A DNA stretch of 64,000 nucleotides, from positions 3,888,303 to 3,952,302 of the forward strand of contig MU053513.1 of NCBI GenBank assembly GCA_013239625.1, read 5' to 3'. Made by a program: the position numbers and the translations under genes. The notes beneath the pieces are model-generated. The model ran no database searches and was not told the DNA's origin. It saw nothing but the letters and a program-made list of their open reading frames with translations. Origin of the DNA: Lama guanicoe (lineage: Eukaryota). Shown in pieces: positions 1 to 42,377 of this stretch (positions are counted from its first letter, which is position 1; every line of letters starts with the position of its first letter).

Positions 1-814
1 TAGAGATTTCATGGTCACTTTCGGTTTACCATGGATGAAGATATTAATAACATTTTCTTTAAGGCGTTTGCTTTGAGTTACCTAAGAAACTCCTTAGTAA
101 CTAATAAAAAAGGACCAAAGAGTGAAAGAAATGTTCTGAAATATTTCTTCAGGTTAGGGTCGCTGGACTTCCCACATGTGGTAGCTGGTTTGTTGTCAGC
201 AACCATACTCCTCTGCCTGGCCACTGTGCAGAGCTGAGGAGAGCAATCTTATAGTCTGGCTGTGTGCTGCTATATCTGTTTGGAAGTCTGGTGGATGTGC
301 ATTCTTGTAAGCAATACACTCCAGCTCATAAGCTTATGCTCCTGTTGCTTGGTTTGGTTTGCTCTCTTAGTCATATGTCCCCAGCCAGTTGGCCTGGAAA
401 TGGCTAGAAAGGCCTATGAGAACTGCTGCTGACCATAGAGCATGGGGCAGTTTAGACTTTCCCTCCATAAAACAGAGATAATGGAAATCTGGCTACCCAG
501 AAGCAACCTTGCACAGCTGCCTCCCATCAAATTGCAGTCAGCTAATCCTACTGGAAGATTAGCTGTTAGAGACTGTTTAGGCAGATTATTGGATCAACAT
601 TTTCTGGCTTGTAGCCCTGCCAGGTGCTTCAAGTTTTGCCAGATTTACCAGAGATTTTTCCTCTGAGTGTTCCACCAGCCGTTGAACTCTGGGGACGTGG
701 ACTTTGAACAATAAAGCTTACTCCTTCAGCATTCTGTCAGTTGCAGGTGTTTTTCTGCTGTGTGTTTCTGGCCACAGTAGTTGCAGAGACATAGGTCCAT
801 CAAGGAGGAGGTTT

Positions 815-1010
815 TGTGTAATAGTTAGGAATATCTGCTGTGGAATTAAGCCAATCTGAATTTGAATCCTGGCTTTAACACCTACGAGTCCTGTGACTAG
901 TTTTCTCTTTTGTAAAGTGGGGTAGTGTCTTTTTTTTTATAGGTTGTGAAAAGGTTTAAGCTAGTAAATACATATAAAGGGTTTAACATAGTATCTGACA
1001 AATAAAAATC
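815..1010 (+). mobile_element. MIR SINE, decayed
   Basis: MIR-like core 'tttgaatcctggcttt...ctgtgact...tgtaaagtgggg...ataggttgtgaaaagg...tataaagggtttaacatagtatctgaca'. Confidence 0.6.
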
Positions 1011-1199
1011 CAAATTGTTCTGGGAAGTTTTGACATTGTCCTAATGACTTGATAAGTGGTATTGTTTGGGATAACACATGACGTTTTATCGAAGCCGTTG
1101 ATTAATCAGAATACTCCATTCCAGATGACATTAATTGTAATATAAATAAATTCTAGTTTCTGAACTTTTGCTTATGGTATCCTTTATTCAAACAATAAC

Positions 1200-1547
1200 T
1201 GTCCTAGTCTATTTGGGGTTCTATAACAAAATGTCATAGTCAGGCTAGCTTATAAATACCAGAAATTTATTTCTGGCAGTTCTGGAGGCTGAAAGTCTGA
1301 GATCTGGGTGCCACCATGGTCAAGTGAGGCCTTTCTTCTGGGTCGCAGACATCTTATATTCTCCCATGCTAAAAGTGGCTGGAGAGCTCTGTGGGGCCTA
1401 TTTTATAAGAGCACTAACGCTATTTATGAGGGCTCCATCCTCATGATCTAATCAGTTCCCTAAGGCCCCACCTCCTAACACCGTCACATTGGGCATTAGG
1501 ATTCCACCATGTGAGTTTTGGGGGAAACAAACATTCAAATCATGTCA
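1200..1547 (-). mobile_element. MaLR solo LTR, MLT1A-like
   Basis: Runs tgtcctagtc...aaacattcaaatcatgtca (reverse of the MLT1A consensus); flanked by a perfect 5-bp TSD ATAAC (1195-1199 / 1548-1552). Confidence 0.85.
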
Positions 1548-2136
1548 ATAACCGTTTAGTGAATTTGTAATATATCCCCAGATTAGGTGTTAGGAGGCAT
1601 ACAAAAGAAGCAGAAGAGTTGTATCAGAAGGCTATAATTCCTTTTTGGCTTTGTATGAAAAGCCAGTTAGCTTATGTCTAGCATTCTTTTGGTCTTGGAA
1701 TTTGGGGCAGTACTTTGATATTACACTAGACTTGAGGCATCATATTTCTCTTGGAGTTATAATCATACATAGAGCTTCCACGGTCATATCTACATACCTA
1801 AAAATATGGGACTCTCACTGGTTTACTTTGCAGTGATGAGCACTAAAGTACCTTCTGGGATATCAAAATATTTCTTGTTTCTAGTAAGATATTCTGGATA
1901 GTTGCAATCTTTTAATTTTCCTGCCTATTGTATTTCTAAAGCCATAGCAGGTGTTTTCTCTGCCGATGACAGAATATGACCAGACATTGAGTTTTTTTAA
2001 AAGTGGCTAGTGTGTGATATTGCAAAGATGAAAAAAAATCATCAGATATGTTACTTGTCATGAGAAATTAATCATTTTTTATAAACTCTGACTTTCAGTT
2101 TTTTTCTTTTTGTTATGACTACAGTTAATTGCAAGA

Positions 2137-2481
2137 TACTATGCATTAAATTTTGTGTCCCCCCAAAATTTATACCTAATGCCCACTATGATGGTATTAG
2201 GAGGTGGAGTTTGGAAATGATTAGATCATGAGGGTGGAGTCCTTATGAATTGGATTAGTGTTCTTAGAAAACCCACAGAGCTCCGTGGCCCCTTCCACTA
2301 TGTGAGGGCACAGAGAGAAGACAGTGGTTTTGTAACCCAGAAGTCTTTCACCAGAACTTGACCACACAGGCACCCTCCTCTTAGGCATCCATCCTCCAGA
2401 ATTGTTAGAAATCAATTTCTGTTGTTTATAAGCTACCCAGTCTGTGGTATTTTGTGATAGCAGCTTGAATGGACTAAGTCA
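2137..2481 (+). mobile_element. MaLR solo LTR, MLT1A-like
   Basis: 'tactatgcattaaattttgtgtccccccaaaattt...tttctgttgtttataagctacccagtctgtggtattttgtgatagcagcttgaatggactaagtca'; TSD not preserved. Confidence 0.85.
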
Positions 2482-2689
2482 ATGGCCAAATTTCTAGAGA
2501 TTTCCATGTACAAATGCTCCGCACTGTTTTGTGCTGTACGGACTGTTCTTGGAAGAGGCAAGTCCTGCGATTATCCATTTGATTCTAAACCCCATACCTC
2601 AAATTGAGCAAATTATTGAATTGGCTATAATATGTATACAGCCAATAGCTAAACGCAAGCCAAAACCTCAGTTCTTGAAATGCTTAGAT

Positions 2690-2912
2690 AATAACAATGG
2701 TAAATATTTGTGTTTATATGAAGCTTCAAGGTTTTCAAAATGTTCTCCACCTACCTTATTTATAAGTTAGCCTCATTTGATAATGAAAAAAATGCATGAG
2801 AAATTGGGACACAAAGAGGTTAAGTCACTTGCTTTAAGGTGCACAGCACGTCAATGGAGAAGGACTCAAACCTAACTATTCTGGCTGCAAATCTAGGTCT
2901 CTTTGCATTGTA
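2690..2912 (-). mobile_element. MIR SINE, decayed
   Basis: 'gaaattgggacacaaagaggttaagtcacttgctttaaggtgcacagc...ggactcaaacct' is the reverse MIR core. Confidence 0.55.
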
Positions 2913-5269
2913 TAGTCCAGCCCAGTAAAGTCTAGTAGCCATGCCTCTTTCTGTGAGTTAAGCTCCCTTTAGAATATGACTGATTAACACATGCCTTTGT
3001 AGTAGACTTTTAAAATGTGAACTGTTCTCTCAATTGGGCTTTTGCTTAGCTGGTGCAAAATCCACCATGGAATTATCTTGCCTGCCATGTGGAATATGAT
3101 GATGACGAATCACATTCCACATTGCTAGGCTTTTTACAGTGTACTTAAACTTCATTGGCTGTAGATCTATCTTTGAGAAAGGGGAATGTGAACAATACAC
3201 TGCAGAACACAAAACAGCTGTTAGATTTTCTTATTCCTAAACAAGCGTTGTTAAGCAAGAATTTAAAGATAAGAAAGAACATACCAGTAACAAGTTATGG
3301 AAGCTAGAAGCATTACAGTTACGTGAGTTAGCTCCTGAGGGTTGGTTGTTTTTGTGTACTTAAGTTTCTAGATGACCCTTGCGTTAAGTATATCCCAACT
3401 TGATCTAACTTGACTATGGTTTTTTAATACCATGTACAATGAAAAGTTTAGGCTAAAAATGAATGATTGTAACTTACAAATGGTATAATGGGGAAACACA
3501 CAGAGCCAAGATACTGAAGTGTTTTCTATTATTTATACTAAACAGTTATAGAAATTATATAGGTGTAGGATATAATGACTCTAAATTATATACTTTCTAT
3601 AATAGTCTTATTCAGTAACCTTTATCCTCCACTATGAATAGATCCTTTTCCAGAAGTGGATTGGGAGTAGGAAAAGAACCAAAAAGTTCAGATAGCCCTG
3701 AAATAGATGGTACTAGGCAGAGCTTACTACCCCCTTATTTTGAGGAAATATGCATTCTTTTCCCTCTGAATTAATAGAGGAAACATTTGTATGCCTTACT
3801 TTTTCTTAGCCATCTTTCATTGTTCTTGATAATGTGACTTGTATTTTAAGTAATTGAATACCAGATTTTTTCCCATCAATTAATTTCCTTGTATAGATAA
3901 CTGTGCAGAAACTGGTAGGATGCTTGGAGACAACTAGGATATGATAAACAGCTATCATTCCCTATAAAATAGATAATAAGTACTTTATCATGATGCTTGA
4001 ATACTATTGGACATACGCAATTGTGTAAGAATATTTACAAACATGCAAAAAGAGAAGAAAAGTATTTTTTAACTCTTTGCATCCCTTTTGGGAATATACA
4101 GATTTTCATGTTCCTTATAAGAAGGAACTTGTGAATAGTTATTCTAAAATAACACTTGAGATAAGTAAAGAGTAGATGTTCAAATTTTCAGGGCTCCTTT
4201 ATAGAAAAAGATGGAAGGAGAGCTGTTGACCAATTTAAGCACAGGTTTTTCCTTTCTTTTTTTTTCTAATTATGACTTTATACTGTTTATAAATAAATTT
4301 ATCATGCAAAATCAGAAGACATGCATATGCTTTTAGGTAAATATTTAAGACATAGCGTAAATTATAGCATTAGCGATTATCTAGTAAATTGGGGCTTTGC
4401 AGACAACCCAAATCAGTGTAGGCCAAGATCAAAAACAAAACCAAAAACACTCAATTGTTTAAATATGCAATAAAGTACACACTTGATTTAGCCTAACGAA
4501 CTTAAAATTCTAGGGTCCTTTTACCTGGTTTCCTCAGTTCTCTTTGTGGAGTCAAAATAAGCCTCTTCCTATCTTCATTAAAGACTGTGCTTAAAAATGA
4601 TGATGAAATTAAGAAGATTTTAAGAAAAATATTTTGCATATTCCACAAGGGAAGTTTGAAGACAAAATAAAAAACATTCTTAGCTCATAATTCCCTAAGA
4701 GTACCATGGGTATGTTTTCACTCAGCCAATATGATCATCAAAGAAGCCTGGGTTTTAATGAGATAGATATCTCAGAGATCAAATGATCGACAGAAACACT
4801 GTCTTTTCTTTCTGTGTCAGCCTTCAAAATTGAAGTATCTCCTGTACTTTTCTGTACTTTAAAAATGTACAAACATTACACGAAAACTGCTTTTACTGCC
4901 CATTAGGTCATGTCACTTATAGGTCGAGACATTATTTGTGCCATTAGCTATAGTGGCTGGAACATGTTTAAGATTTATTAAAAAATGTAAATAATCTGAA
5001 GATTGTAGTTATCATCAGCATTAATAAAGACTGATGATTTATTATTTCTTACCAGTTTTATTTAACCTAATTTCTCAGGAAACAGATAAGTGACAGAGGA
5101 AAGAGTTGTAACAAGATCATAGTACAAGAACGGCCTAAAGGTAATCCTTAGGAGGAAGAGGAGCCGTTGCTGTCACTACTCTGACTATAATTATCATTTT
5201 GTGCCAGAAACTTTTCTAGAGGGATTTTATTTTTATTTATTTATTTTGGTGCTTGTTCTGGGTTTATGA

Positions 5270-5433
5270 AATGGAAATAAGAGAGATCTTAGTTTTGGCC
5301 AACTCTGCCAGCTCTGTGAACGTGGACAGTGTATCACTGAGGCTCTCTGCATTTTGACTTTCTCACCTATAAAATTTGAGATCTGGACTGGGATCTCTAT
5401 GGCCCTTTCCAGCTTTAAAATTCTAGGATTCTA
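5270..5433 (+). mobile_element. MIR (MIR3-like) SINE
   Basis: Core 'ctttctcacctataaaat' and MIR3-type tail 'ccctttccagctttaaaattctaggattcta'. Confidence 0.55.
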
Positions 5434-6419
5434 ATCCAGTCACGGAGAAATAGGTGATCCCTTTTGATCAAGGCTAATTTCACACCTGCCTTTCTCTTCT
5501 AGGCTGGGAACCTCTCTCCCTCAGTTCACACACATACATTTTATTTTTCTTGCCCTTCCTTTGGCTCCTTTTCTGCCATCCATATACACATGTTCGCACC
5601 TTCCTATCTTTGATTTTTTCCCCCTAAATTTTCCCTCTTAGTTTAGTGTATGTATGTCGTAGGTGAGAAAGCCAATGTTAAAATTTTGTCCTGTAGTCTA
5701 AATTATAAATTAACAGTAACCCTTGGTGCAGTAGTGAGTCATTTCCCTAATGAAATTCAGTTGTTTTCTTTTTTCCAAGTTGTTTTATTGATAGTTCTCA
5801 GCATTCAGTCACTTCTTTCATGAATCTCAAAACGTTACAAACATGGCCCTCTTTAATCACCCTGAGAAAATGAAGCTTAGAGATAGAGTTTAACATGATG
5901 GGGGGAAAAATTAGTGTTTTTTTTTTTAATAAAAATGATGCCATATTATACATGCAAAAAATAAAATTCTAGAATTCTTGAAAAGACTAAAGAGGAGAAA
6001 AGAACATGAGGATTATAATCAGTTTTTAAGCGAAGTTTCAACCCCCCCCCCCAAATAACCTTTGGGAAGTAGTGGTCTTTAGGTTTACAAGATCCTGTCT
6101 ATAAATATGTGTATAAGGTGGAGGGCACTTCTACTGAGCACTTGGAAATGTTAGATGTCACTTTCTCCAGGAAGTTTTTCTTAAACACTCACCCTCCTGC
6201 ACACCTTTTAAAATGGATATTCATTCCCACCTCTGTGTTCCAGCTGCATCTTCTGTGTGCTTGTATTGTTATTGCATTGTACTCTCTTCTTCCTTCATCC
6301 CTTTATCTTCATCTCCAACTTTGTCGATAGATTTGCAGTTATCATATAATGGGAACTTGAGCTTTGCTGTTCCTCACTTTAATCTTTCTTTCATCCTTTT
6401 TTCTCTGCTTCACTGGCAT

Positions 6420-7380
6420 GCCTTCTTCCTCTTCTCTCCTGAGTCATGGTGTTTCCCAAGGTTGTGTCTTCCACAGTCTTCTCTTAATTTGCCCTTTTGC
6501 GATCCTGTGCGTCCACTGACTTAAACCGTCATCTTGTAAGTATGACTTTCTTATCTACATCTAGTTCTGACCTCTCAAATCAATTCCATCTTTACCTCTA
6601 AAACTGCTATCTGGAAATCTCCACTTAGCTGTGTTTTACTCACTTTGAACTCAGCACATCATTATCCTGGTCCTAGATCATCTTTTCCACACCTCCTTGT
6701 TTCTGATAATAAGTGAGAGTTCTTCCTACGTTGTTGTGAGACTCCTCCTGGAGCGCAGTTCTGATCATGTCGTTCCCATTGCTGATTCTGTATTTCATCT
6801 TCCTAAGCCTCAGTTTCCTCACCTTAGTGTGTTCTGAACGTTTGGATTCTGGTGACTGAAGGATATACTCATATGAAAGAGGCTAAACTTGGTGCCTGGT
6901 ATATGGTAGGTAAGCATTCCCTGTTAGACTTTCCCTTATTTAAACACCCTGTATTGTTTACAAAATAGAGCCCGCACTTCTCAGCCTGACATATAAACTC
7001 TCATCAAACTATCCCCTGAAAATTCTTCACTTTTTCTCATTTTTGCTCATTTTTTTCTCTTCTTCTGAAAGTTGACCCTTTATCATCTATACCAGCAGAA
7101 ATTCTAACCACCTTTCAAGACCCAGTGTAAGTGCTTTCTCTTCCATGAAAGGCTCCCTAACTCACATTTAGATGTGAATTCCTCTTTTCCTTTTCAACCC
7201 TTTCTCCACAATTTACAAATTGTGTCTTGCATTATAGGTGTGGATAATGTTGACATTTTTCTGTTAAAAGTTTAGGTTCATTTTGAGGGCTATCCTTATT
7301 CTTAACTTTTTTTTTTATAACCTTCACAGTGCTAATAGAAGACCTTCTCCGTAACAGACCCTCAAAAATATTTTTCAAAC
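6420..7380 (+). mobile_element. L2 LINE 3' region, fragmented, with an embedded MIR piece near 6800-6920
   Basis: Pyrimidine-rich L2 motifs 'tctacatctagttctgacctctc', 'atctccacttagctgtg...ttgaactcagcaca', 'cctttcaagacccagtgtaagtgctttctcttccatgaa'. Confidence 0.5.
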
Positions 7381-8109
7381 AACTTCTAATAGATAATCAG
7401 TGTGTTTTGTTTCTACTTTCAGATTCCTAAATGCTTCAGTGGGAAAAACTGATTGTGAAATATGATAGAGTTATGGGTCATGACTTTGCACAAATATGCT
7501 AAAACTACATTTGATTAGCTCATGCAGTAGTCTGATAGGGAAGGGGTATATGGTTTGTGCACTTTATGTGGTATTAGGAGAATGGGACCAGTCCTAGACT
7601 AAACATTTTCATAATCTTTCATTGACCTTCCTGGAGATAGACTGCTCAGTCTTTGCCATCTCTAATTATTGTAATTTTGTACTTAGAACACATGTGTTGT
7701 GTGGAAATCTCCGTGGCTTGTACTGCTTCCCATGCCCTGCTGGCAAGCACTGTAGGTAGTTGTTGAGGTTCCATTTTGCAAAGGCCACAGTTAAACTCAA
7801 AGTCGTTTTGAAGAGAATTCACGGGTCTACCCTGTCAAAGTAAAGGGGCAATTAAAGCAATTAAAATATCATATTCATGGAAACAAATTTTAAAAACCGA
7901 TAAAACCCATAATGTAACACCATTATTATTGAGGACAAGAAGAGGAGGGTGTGGGGGGTAGGAATGTGAAACCTATGAAGAGATGAAGAAAAACTACCCT
8001 GATTATTGTTTCTCAACTCTTAATCTGCCTTTCCCGGGGTACCCCTGGCCTATGATTCCTGGAGCCCTTTATACAAAGTTTGTATGTTCTTGGTTAGGAT
8101 GAAACTTTG

Positions 8110-8320
8110 GAACAGTGGAAAGAATGTTGGTTTTTGGCATCAGAGAAACTAGATTCAAGTTCTGGCTCTGGTGTTACTATGTGACCTTAGGCTAGTCACT
8201 TAATATCTCTGGTGCCTTAGTTTCTATCTGTAAAATGAAGCTGTTAATATCTGCCTCCAGTAGTTGTTATGATGATTGAGAATAATGTTGTTAAAACACT
8301 TCCAAATTATAAAGTGTTTT
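8110..8320 (+). mobile_element. MIR SINE
   Basis: 'gattcaagttctggctctgg...tgtgaccttaggctagtcacttaatatctctggtgccttagtttctatctgtaaaatg'. Confidence 0.65.
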
Positions 8321-8494
8321 GTGAGTAATCTCTCAGTGAAGGAGCTCTGATGACTCACTTCTGAAACCAGAAGAATGTTGGAAGCTTTTGGTTCTCACCT
8401 CGAGGCCTCTGCTCTTTTTTCTCTGTCTGCAACTCTCTTCTATTCTTTTCATTCTGCAAGTCTTAACTTTAAATATCCTCACTTCCTTGATCAT

Positions 8495-8894
8495 TGTATT
8501 AGTTTTCTAGGGCTGCTAAAATAAAGTAACCCAGATTGGGTGATTTAGACAACAGAAATTTATTTTCTCATAGTTCTTGAAGCTAGAAGTCTGAGATCAA
8601 GGGGTCAGCATGGTTGATTTCTGTTGGACTCCTCTCTCCTTGGCTTGCAGATGGTTGTCCTCAGCTGACTTCACATCCTCTTGTCTCTTTGACTGATTGT
8701 GTTCTAATCTCTCTTCTTATAGGGACACCAGTCATATTGAATTAGGGCCCCACTCATATGACCTCATTTTTCCTTAGTGACCTCTTTGGAGGCCCTGTCT
8801 TCAAATGCAGTCATATTTGGAAGTACTGAGGATTAGAATTCCAACATAGGAATTGGGGGGGGGGGTAGGCGGGGACACAATTCAGCCCATAACA
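8495..8894 (-). mobile_element. MaLR solo LTR, MLT1B-like, inserted in an L2 fragment (about 8400-9080)
   Basis: tgtattagttttctagggctgct...ggacacaattcagcccataaca; TG...CA ends; about 400 bp. Confidence 0.85.
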
Positions 8895-9084
8895 ACTACC
8901 TTACCAAAAGTACTTCCCCCATTTTCTATTCCTTTTATAGTGCTCATTTAAAATTATTTTATTTGTTTACTATTTTTGCCTGACTTTTTCACTTAAATGT
9001 AATTGTCATGAAGGCAGAAATTAGATATTATTACTTTTGTATCCTCAGCCTCTGGCAAGATGCCTTGCACAAGGTAAGTACCTG

Positions 9085-9260
9085 GTTTTATCACTTACTA
9101 GCCATGTAACTGTGGGCAAATAATTTAGCTCCTTTGTGCCTCAGTTTACTTAGTAAGATGGAGATCTTATGATTATGCACTTCCTATTACATTAGCACTT
9201 TTCAGTGCTTAGAATAGTACCTGACACATATAGAATGCTCAATAAATATTAGCCATTATT
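9085..9260 (+). mobile_element. MIR SINE
   Basis: 'cacttactagccatgtaactgtgggcaaataatttag...gcctcagttt...gtgcttagaatagtacctgacacata...gctcaataaatattagc'. Confidence 0.6.
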
Positions 9261-9996
9261 CTTGCTTTTCCACACATTTTTTGAAACAGTGAATGCATGA
9301 ATCAAGTGCCTTGTAAAAAATTTAAATATTTGTGAATTGAGATCCATGTGGCACTCTATTCACAAAGCAGTTTTCTTTTTCATTTCAGAATGGTATATTC
9401 TTCACTGAACACAGGAACAACCATAAAACCCCTTTGGTACATGAAGCTTTGTGATTCTAACTACATTCTCAGTGTCTTCTGTCCAGTCACTTTGACTACA
9501 CGCCTCAGGTCTCTATGGTGGGTGTGTCTTTGTGTACTTGCATTGGTGATGGTCTTTGTGTGTCTGTAGTTTTTTATTCTGGAAGTTGGAAAACAAGCAT
9601 GTCTCTAAGATAAAATGACCCTGGATTCCAGGAGAACTAGAGATCAACGGCCTAGCTCTAGCAGAGGATGACATGAGTTCACGGAAGTTGGGTTCCAGAG
9701 AGCTGTTGAGCAAGGAGTCAAGGGAACTGGTTCGGGAACTTGGCCTAGCTGGGGCCGAGAGCTTGGAGGAACAGAAAAGAGCCCCTTTTTTTTTGGATGT
9801 CTGGCCTGTTTCAGGAGAAAAAGCTGGAAGCTCAAAGAACTTATGTGATTCTTAATCGGACTGAGACCAGGAATGCCTGTATGCATCTACACCAGGATGG
9901 ATGGATCCAGACTGAGACGTCTCAAAATGATCTAATCAATTCAGAGATGCTCTGTGATTTACTACTTTGTAGGGCTCTGTAATTCTCTGCTTATAC

Positions 9997-10714
9997 TTTG
10001 GTTTTTTAACTACATCTGGACTGCAAATAAAAAAGGACCCATGTCAATCTTCACTTATAAGAAGGTAAATGAACTTATTATTTCACAGAAGATTTTCCTA
10101 AAATAAGTTGTTTATACAAGCATTCAAAACATAGTGAATTAATAATAATGGCTAATATATAGAGCATTTACAATGTGTCAGGCACTGTGGTAAGCACTTT
10201 CAATATTATCACATTTGATTATCACACATCTGTGAGATAGATAATGTATCACTCGAATTTAAAGAGAAAGAAACAGTCTCAGAGAAATGAAGCTGGTCAA
10301 GTTTACAGCTTATAAGTGGTAGAGCAGGATAGAAATTAGGTATATTTGCTTATAAACCTCTGTACTCTACTTACCTTCCAACTAGCCTTTATTATTTATG
10401 TCCCCAACTAGCATTTATCATGTATGTGCTAAATGGTATATGAATATTATAGCTTTTAATCTTGGCAACAGTTTTGTGTGTGTGGTATAATGTAATTATA
10501 ATTATAATTATAATTCCTAATTTTCCAGTGTGGATTCTGAGGCTTAGAGAGATTTGCCTAGAGGTTTCAATTTGTGAGATAGGATCATAAACAAAAATGC
10601 CAGGACTTCAAGTGAAAGCAGTAATAGTAAGAATTTTGCCTTATTGTCACAACCATATTTATAACTCATGTATCTTTTCTTTATTTGCAGTCCAGATGTA
10701 GTTAAAAAACCAAA
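9997..10714. repeat. Perfect 35-bp inverted repeat (arms 9997-10031 and 10680-10714, 648-bp spacer)
   Basis: TTTGGTTTTTTAACTACATCTGGACTGCAAATAAA is the exact reverse complement of TTTATTTGCAGTCCAGATGTAGTTAAAAAACCAAA. Confidence 0.95.
10140..10370 (-). mobile_element. MIR SINE (inside the inverted-repeat spacer)
   Basis: 'aataataatggctaatatatagagcatttacaatgtgtcaggcactgtggtaagcacttt...gaaacagtctcagagaaatgaag'. Confidence 0.65.
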
Positions 10715-12054
10715 AAACACAGTGCAGTTACCATAAATAGAAAGAAGGAGTCTTTGGATTAAGTAGTGGTAAATATCATACAGTTTTATTCAGTGTGAAG
10801 CATAGAGACTTCCACATAGGAATGCTTCCAACACTAACATAGCACATGTGCCTCTGAAGCCAGCTCTTTCTCAACCCTGAACAGCTTCTTATTTGGACAG
10901 TGCTGGCACTAAATACCATAACAGGAATGACTTTTGGCCACACTTTTTTAAGGGGAATAAGATGACCAAAAAAAAAAAGTGCATATGTAAAACAGAGATT
11001 TGGCAAATGGACGGTCCAATTCTTGACATCCCTACGGATTCACCCTCATTAAAATAAAAGTATATAGCTTTCCCCTTCATTTCTCCTAGGATGATCTCTG
11101 AATTCCCATGTTGAACAGAAAATGCTAAAATATCAACATCCCTATGAATTACTCGCTTACCCCAATAAACCCTGAAATTCAACCTCAGGATTCTGTAGTT
11201 ACAGACACACTGCTGTGGGCTTTCTTCTAACACATGACAGTCTCCATGCACACTAATGCTGCATGTTCATTCTCTCCGGAGGCTGTAAATAATCCTCTAT
11301 GGCACATGTGACTTTTTTTTTTAACTGCATAAGTAGACAAAAAGCTTTGGGAAAAAAATATGGGCTTTCTTCCCCCTTCATGAACTCTTTAGTCTGATTA
11401 TTGGACCCAAGATAAGCAAAACACAAGTGTGTTTGCTCTTAATTAAAGCTTTTTTCATAGTGTATCCAGAGGCACCATTTCAGAGTGTGCAAACCAGATG
11501 AGATGAATAGTAAGTACTGTGGTTTACTCCTTCTAAGATTATCTGTGCATTTTTGTTTTGAGAAGTTAATGTTAGGAACTTAAACAAGAATCCTTAATAC
11601 TTAGGGGAAAAGTGGGTATGCGTCTCAGTTGTTCTCAGGTATTTGTGTTTCCATAGCAAGGGCTTTACAGAGAAACTGCCATCTGGATTGGGAATGAGGG
11701 AAGGAATAGGAGCGTGTTCTCACCTACGAAGAGGTAAAGGTGTGATTCTTGCCCTTGAATTTCCTTAGCACTTTCTCAGTTCTTCTCATTTTTTTTGTCA
11801 TCAAAACACAGGGCTTCTGTTCCCAAGTGGGCTATAAATTCCTAGTCATATGTTTTTTGTGTGAATAAATAAAAATATAAAATTGATATTAGTCATTCCA
11901 GAAAACAGGATAGCTCAACAGGATCTCATAAAACTTGAAAATAAAGGCATCACTTTGCTTTTTAGATACAGTAACAAATGGAGGGAAAAGGTTCTTGTCT
12001 AGATTTAGTTTCAAAATCAGTCAGTGAAACACAAATAAGCAAATCATCTAGCAC

Positions 12055-42265: not shown

Positions 42266-42377
42266 GGGGGGAGTGTATAGCTCAGTGGTAGAGTGCATGC
42301 CTAGCATGCACGAGGTCCTGAGTTCAGTCCCCAGTACTTCCATTAAAAAATACATAAATAAAAATAAATAAACCTAA
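42266..42377 (+). mobile_element. tRNA-derived SINE (camelid Vic-1-like)
   Basis: Pol III A box TAGCTCAGTGG (42278-42288), B-box-like GAGTTCAGTCC (42320-42330), A-rich tail ending aaacctaa; 16-bp TSD ctaaatagggatttga (42213-42228 / 42374-42389). Confidence 0.85.

Follow-up and report, generated by a model that had tools for sequence, protein, structure and literature searches.

The closest described counterpart of the element reported here is the 'Inverted Dup' of the 1000 Genomes phase 3 data (PMC4617611), which accounted for 54% of the sequenced human inversion sites and consists of a duplicate shorter than 1 kb, inverted and lying within 5 kb of its template. A single template-switch event is reported to make a perfect inverted repeat, with its spacer either inverted or not, and pre-existing imperfect repeats can prime such switches (PMC5453318; bioRxiv 10.1101/2021.11.26.470150). 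Imperfect priming matches are usual in the templated insertions of the MMBIR type, for which templates were searched within 100 bp (PMC8421209), and the inverse templated insertions made by polymerase theta typically have templates within 30 bp and tracts of 3-30 bp (PMC7165422). PMC8755829 deals with inversions of 17-33 nt and adds little here. On the RNA side, PCCRs are long-range pairs defined by vertebrate conservation and supported by covariation (PMC8052449), and the HIV-1 polyA hairpin is a local structure in which pairing masks AAUAAA (PMC3432602). LNC1845 is a human lncRNA divergent from LHX8, which is 1410 nt long, unspliced and starts 4.5 kb upstream (PMC9859043).

The present element lies in a stretch of 64 kb that was analysed as a whole (the window). 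It consists of two arms of 35 nt, which match at 35/35 positions around a spacer of 648 nt (Table 1), as originally predicted from the letters alone (an exact 35-bp inverted repeat with a loop of about 650 bp). Two such matches occurred in none of 100 shuffles. Like an 'Inverted Dup', it is a short inverted duplicate within 5 kb of its counterpart (35 nt, 648 nt apart), is not an interspersed repeat and bears no sign of retrotransposition; unlike these, it measures only 35 nt and is known as a feature common to two lineages, not as a polymorphism. It also resembles the four-point template switches of Loytynoja and Goldman (2017), in which one event yields a perfect inverted repeat and selection is unneeded, but its 648 nt exceed the events reported there (longest pattern 318 bp; mean 11.56 bp). 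With the MMBIR-type and polymerase-theta insertions, which accumulate as germline variants, it shares an inverted local copy, AT-rich sequence and micro-homeology, and differs from them in template distance. Among the papers listed by a literature search none describes this element, which is no proof of absence.

Table 1. Coordinates of the features discussed in the text (window positions unless a contig is given).
Feature	Position	Strand	Remarks
Internal exon of spliced non-coding RNA	9389-9517	+	AG acceptor 9387-9388; donor GT 9518-9519
Unspliced exon extension through left arm	9518-10062	+	RNA contigs; strand taken from the spliced exon
168-codon frame with only 2 stops	9516-10019	-	Begins inside left arm; rejected as gene
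Left arm	9997-10031	+	35 nt; final six bases AATAAA
Candidate poly(A) signal AATAAA	10026-10031	+	TGTA words and T run upstream; T-rich about 40 nt downstream
Left inward extension	10032-10043	+	Imperfect; candidate priming microhomeology (weak)
Spacer	10032-10679	.	648 nt; old interspersed-repeat pieces at about 10140-10290 and 10510-10555
Right inward extension	10667-10679	-	Imperfect; pairs with 10032-10043
Right arm	10680-10714	-	Exact reverse complement of left arm
96-nt inverted repeat	G000:C9598:12,179,529-12,179,624 and 12,180,563-12,180,658 (L131-L132)		Differences clustered mid-arm
Perfect single-copy palindrome	G000:C1064 about 1,122,858 (L046)		26-nt arms, no spacer
Perfect single-copy palindrome	G000:C9598 about 12,081,851 (L122)		21-nt arms, 8-nt spacer

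No other perfect inverted repeat in the window is as long as the arms; the runner-up has 22 nt. When the 24-nt core of the arm was sought in the whole 2.05-Gb genome with up to 2 mismatches, only two places were found, namely the two arms, and both flanks were also single copy genome-wide. This agrees with the original description of the arms as unique DNA. They are not known to match a terminus in Dfam or Repbase. Gapped alignment lengthened the arms inward (9997-10043 with 10667-10714; 47/48 nt, 92%), with all four differences inside the inner 13 nt. This inner match of 12-13 nt is weak, as equally good scores were reached by 19 to 113 random partners out of 1500, and by 40 to 213 out of 1500 when the partners were A-rich. 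Outward of the arms there was no similarity (anchored scores of -3 and 1) and the ends were sharp. The outer flanks shared no direct repeat of 2 to 8 nt, in keeping with the predicted lack of a target-site duplication. For want of such a duplication and of any other copies of the terminal repeats in the genome, we rejected the ends of a DNA transposon or MITE, which had already been judged unlikely from the sequence. The spacer had been said to hold ancient MIR debris; old multi-copy pieces are indeed there (matched at 71-87% in 11 other places of the genome), and we take them to be MIR. A search of 9300-11500 with the Rfam covariance models gave 0 matches at E values up to 1.

Other repeats were noted in the window. 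An imperfect 38-nt palindrome (79%) occupies 9329-9366, 20 nt upstream of the exon acceptor. The segments 11020-11050 and 11135-11170 look by eye like loosely similar direct copies, with a poly(A)-like hexamer close to the end of each (ATTAAA at 11048 and AATAAA at 11164). The only Rfam match of the window, to tRNA at the gathering score and with A-rich direct repeats on either side (42271-42342), is likely a tRNA-derived SINE or retrocopy, and a decayed inverted pair (1361-1480 with 2192-2306; 71-75%) likely represents two old LTR-type copies in opposite orientation.

To place the repeat among others, we surveyed 1,864,000 bases (the window, 200 kb of flanks and 8 blocks of 200 kb taken from 5 contigs; 7,817 N). 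No other perfect arm of at least 30 nt with a spacer of up to 3 kb was present. Four complex arms reached 25 nt, 3 of them single copy, and no arm of at least 25 nt was found in the mirror-repeat control. With mismatches allowed, the 1.80 Mb outside the window contained one other single-copy locus, with 96-nt arms (88.5%) and a spacer of 938 nt. By simple arithmetic, 1 per 1.8 Mb scales to about 1,000 per genome (Poisson range about 30 to 6,000). What sets the repeat apart is its perfection rather than its build.

We then looked at independent sequencing runs. Of 24 runs listed, 14 were of whole-genome size (10 guessed to be DNA from 4 organisms and 4 of unrecorded kind; 5 studies), and 3 of these 14 were flagged as a possible source; run X11 was not flagged. 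All 14 held at least 0.95 of the sequence words of 9350-11300, whereas X18 and X20 had small shares of them and X21-X24 none, so that these six do not enter the counts. Contigs of 4 runs were compared over 9350-10140, namely X11 (DNA) and X15, X17 and X19 (RNA, 3 studies), the right arm and the right part of the spacer being represented solely by contig ends matching the left arm. The DNA contigs of X11 broke at the arm, which formed a separate contig of 35 nt with a depth of 31.7, as compared with 13.5 and 14.7 for the outer flanks. The loose end of a second contig corresponded to the right outer flank, so that both outer junctions were present. This double depth is the pattern of a 35-mer present twice, indicating that the second arm is no assembly error, and the possibility of an assembly artefact, raised at the outset, was thus answered. 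The genome assembly is split into 55,231 contigs, which would leave room for an artefact; against this stand the observations in X11, the right arm with its flank in RNA run X15, the 14/14 runs holding the words and, as regards chance, the shuffles. We consider the probability that an artefact or chance made the repeat to be negligible.

X15, X17 and X19 shared 16 differences from the window in 471 nt (3.4%), a figure that excludes one difference also present in X11. We read theirs as the other camelid lineage, an identity that we take from a remark in the original prediction. The left arm was unchanged in this lineage (all 35 nt in X17; no change in X19; none in the 30 nt covered in X15). A contig end in X15 comprised 30 of the 35 nt of the right arm with its outer flank, also unchanged, and the same 30 nt were found in X11. 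One contig of X17 bridged the left arm and extended 31 nt on its inner side in the orientation of the window (1 of 3 RNA runs; X19, with only 6 nt outside the arm, was left out of this count). Because both arms are present in a lineage that differs by 3.4%, the repeat predates the split.

We then assessed whether the constancy of the arms implies selection. The probability of 0 changes in the 65 arm sites under neutrality was 0.11-0.14 on both branches and 0.33-0.38 on the branch that was not used for picking the feature, and a Fisher test gave a P of 0.24. The neutral probability, 0.11 for an event at the split, falls with added stem time, to 0.03 if the repeat is twice as old as the split and to 0.003 if it is four times as old. 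Hence, a neutral repeat must be camelid-specific, whereas one common to other mammals would need selection or conversion. In metagenome host DNA, a search for a non-camelid arm gave 0 matches with a 20-mer and 14 with an 18-mer, 0/14 with flanking homology. Divergence was somewhat low over 9990-10140, a stretch chosen after the fact, with 1 difference in 151 nt as compared with 16 in 471 nt (P 0.087 by Fisher's test and 0.036 by Poisson). The unchanged arms are no evidence of selection and are compatible with neutrality. The earlier argument that zero mismatches need either a recent origin or selection was therefore too strong, as the repeat predates a 3.4% split with neutral P values of 0.11 and 0.33.

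The RNA contigs revealed a transcription unit around the left arm. X15 and X17 (2 studies) had the same loose end at 9387, which matched L018:7091-7113 exactly, followed by GTAGGT. The corresponding GT-AG intron on the plus strand comprises 72,275 nt (G000:C1064:3,825,416-3,897,690), and positions 1-9388 of the window lie inside it. The upstream exon (L018:7091-7113) borders a CpG island. It lies 5' of a LIM-homeobox gene of the minus strand, for which LIM and homeodomain exons were found, at about 12 kb from the closest of the coding exons identified; the repeat itself is about 85 kb 5' of these coding exons. From its sequence we take this gene to be LHX8. A spliced non-coding RNA, divergent from the LIM-homeobox gene, thus crosses 72 kb into the window on the plus strand. 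The RNA runs are labelled as reproductive tissue. The RNA resembles LNC1845 in starting upstream of LHX8 and running away from it in reproductive tissue; unlike LNC1845 as described in PMC9859043, it is spliced over 72 kb and has its exon about 12 kb upstream, the likeness described here being one of position.

The donor of the internal exon was deduced from a contig branch at 9514-9518 and from its motif, which is GTGAGT in the diverged lineage and GTGGGT in the window and X11 (difference at 9521). The GTGGGT donor may favour unspliced extension in the lineage of the window. Unspliced contigs covered 9489-10026 in X15 and 9488-10062 in X17, and reached 10140 in pieces in X19; RNA contigs carry neither strand nor level and the libraries may contain DNA. 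The bin 9350-9376 of the intron had a depth of 0 in all 3 RNA runs, while it was covered by the DNA run. The X17 contig stopped 31 nt past the AATAAA and X19 ran beyond it, which gives a weak hint that the extension is an alternative last exon. X15 alone among the 3 RNA runs had contigs, strandless, on both outer flanks of the repeat. In one contig of X17, 72 nt inside the exon were skipped (9387-9415 joined to 9488), and use of the AG at 9485-9486 as a second acceptor may explain the skip. The repeat thus lies inside a spliced transcription unit, which is the precondition for its arms to act as an RNA duplex.

Each arm resembles a splice acceptor that points outward. On the plus strand, the right arm offers a pyrimidine run and an AG at 10689-10690, similar to a 3' splice site. 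None of the 3 RNA runs had a contig break or loose end showing use of the arms as acceptors, though absence in contigs is weak evidence. On the minus strand, the acceptor-like AG at 10021-10022 opens 168 codons with only 2 stops, and the left arm could accordingly be taken for the start of a decayed coding exon, of which 24 nt and the acceptor were duplicated. We rejected a coding exon at the arms and find this origin highly improbable. No homologue was found among 249 longer and 25 candidates of similar length, Pfam gave no match and the best atlas value was 0.79. Of the changes between lineages, 4/17 were silent versus 0.29 expected by chance; 2 of them create stops and one insertion shifts the frame. 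No RNA contig broke at the 10021-10022 acceptor, and the frame of the right arm stops after 14 codons.

How did the repeat arise? We somewhat favour the view that the arms are a single-copy sequence of 35 bases and its inverted copy, made by one template switch before the camelid lineages split and probably neutral. We infer the switch, its date and its neutrality; both lineages compared have both arms. During DNA replication or repair, a nascent 3' end would have jumped some 650 nt to the strand of opposite sense, a slip eased by the A/T run and by the imperfect match of 12-13 nt at the inner ends; after copying 28-35 nt it would have gone back to the template it had left, with the spacer unflipped. 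In the four-point model this is the order 3-2-1-4, or the mirror of that order, and it amounts to a small-scale 'Inverted Dup' in which either arm could be the copy. Such a fold-back copy would be expected to leave imperfect similarity on the inner side of the arms and none on the outer; this was seen, but the inner similarity is weak. The sharp outer ends, the single-copy status of the sequence genome-wide and the lack of a target-site duplication all argue for such a copy, as do the recurrence of the same build in the genome, with no arms of at least 25 nt in the mirror-repeat control, and the finding that the most frequent inversion-type variant in people is a short inverted duplicate close to its template (PMC4617611). 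Zero changes fit a neutral copy if the event took place on the stem shortly before the split. Against the switch, the inner match is weak relative to random partners and 648 nt exceeds the template distances reported as typical for polymerase theta (PMC7165422) and searched for MMBIR (PMC8421209); against neutrality, one may cite the somewhat low divergence around the left arm and the position of the repeat, which is transcribed and includes a poly(A) hexamer. No long jump is required if instead one inter-strand switch (order 3-1-2-4) or staggered breaks flipped the 648-nt spacer before the split and left 35 nt doubled at its ends. One such event yields exactly an inverted repeat that flanks an inverted spacer (PMC5453318), and in the window sequence and genome matches no old repeat crosses either arm to reveal the ancestral orientation. 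We regard such an inversion scar as possible but doubtful: X17 (1/3 RNA runs) has the orientation of the window, so that no flip occurred between the lineages, and the inner imperfect match, weak as it is, would be expected from a fold-back copy and not from an inversion. The suggestion of a scar from a micro-inversion or template switch therefore held as regards copying, which is the best reading, while nothing shows that the spacer was inverted. Even less probable is that the arms are the ends of an old element, or part of a longer old inverted repeat, kept identical by gene conversion from arm to arm. Partial homogenisation would leave the four differences where they are, all in the inner 13 nt, but there is no further arm copy in the genome and no target-site duplication, and the inner match is near chance.

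A further alternative, with which an origin by template switching is compatible, is that the arms are selected as an RNA duplex. In transcripts of the plus strand that run past 10714, they would pair and bury both the AAUAAA at 10026-10031 and the splice look-alike of the right arm, and a selected duplex would thereby tune the choice between 3'-end formation and onward splicing of the LHX8-divergent RNA. Spliced transcription does run through the region, and a stable duplex is predicted (-52.4 kcal/mol), its pairing probability averaging 0.99 in an 810-nt fold of either strand. Any perfect inverted repeat folds well, however. The stop of X17 soon after the hexamer and the contigs of X15 on both outer flanks are in line with such a duplex, while X19 continues past the hexamer, no contig break points to splicing into the right arm and no single molecule was seen to hold both arms. 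Similarly, the absence of change in the 65 arm sites and the mildly low local divergence are set against the non-significance of the former in the neutral and Fisher tests given above; with two lineages and invariant arms, there is no compensatory change to score, and the donor of the exon itself differs between lineages. The arms showed no A>G or T>C change in any of the 3 RNA contig sets, a weak argument as contigs drop minority variants. Precedents are the HIV-1 polyA hairpin, in which AAUAAA is masked through base pairing (PMC3432602), and the long-range pairs linked to 3' ends (PMC8052449). The arms share with the former a predicted pairing that overlaps a poly(A) hexamer, but lie about 650 nt apart, unlike a local hairpin; they share with PCCRs a strong predicted long-range pair within a transcription unit, but PCCRs are conserved across vertebrates with covariation, and the arms are known from two lineages in which they do not vary. 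We judge the selected duplex unlikely, though less so than the converted old repeat. For the initial proposal of a conserved intronic RNA duplex, the spliced unit and the predicted stability speak in favour, while selection, editing and an influence on splicing found no support.

If the repeat is the copy left by a template switch and is neutral, it matters little, as it belongs to a known class of mutation that is recurrent in this genome; pairing of the arms in read-through RNA would then be a predicted by-product. It may still serve as a phylogenetic marker, and is a spot where short-read graphs break. We think it unlikely, though worth stating, that one copying slip gave the camelid LHX8-divergent lncRNA a 35-bp stem that hides a poly(A) signal and a splice look-alike, and with it a switch that depends on elongation and selects either a short form or one spliced onward. 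Such a switch, if true, would sit beside a germ-cell regulator, at the locus where the human divergent lncRNA is reported to act on LHX8 in cis (PMC9859043). Should the duplex prove to control use of the poly(A) site, the repeat would offer a clean natural example of how one template switch can give rise to an RNA-processing element in a single step.
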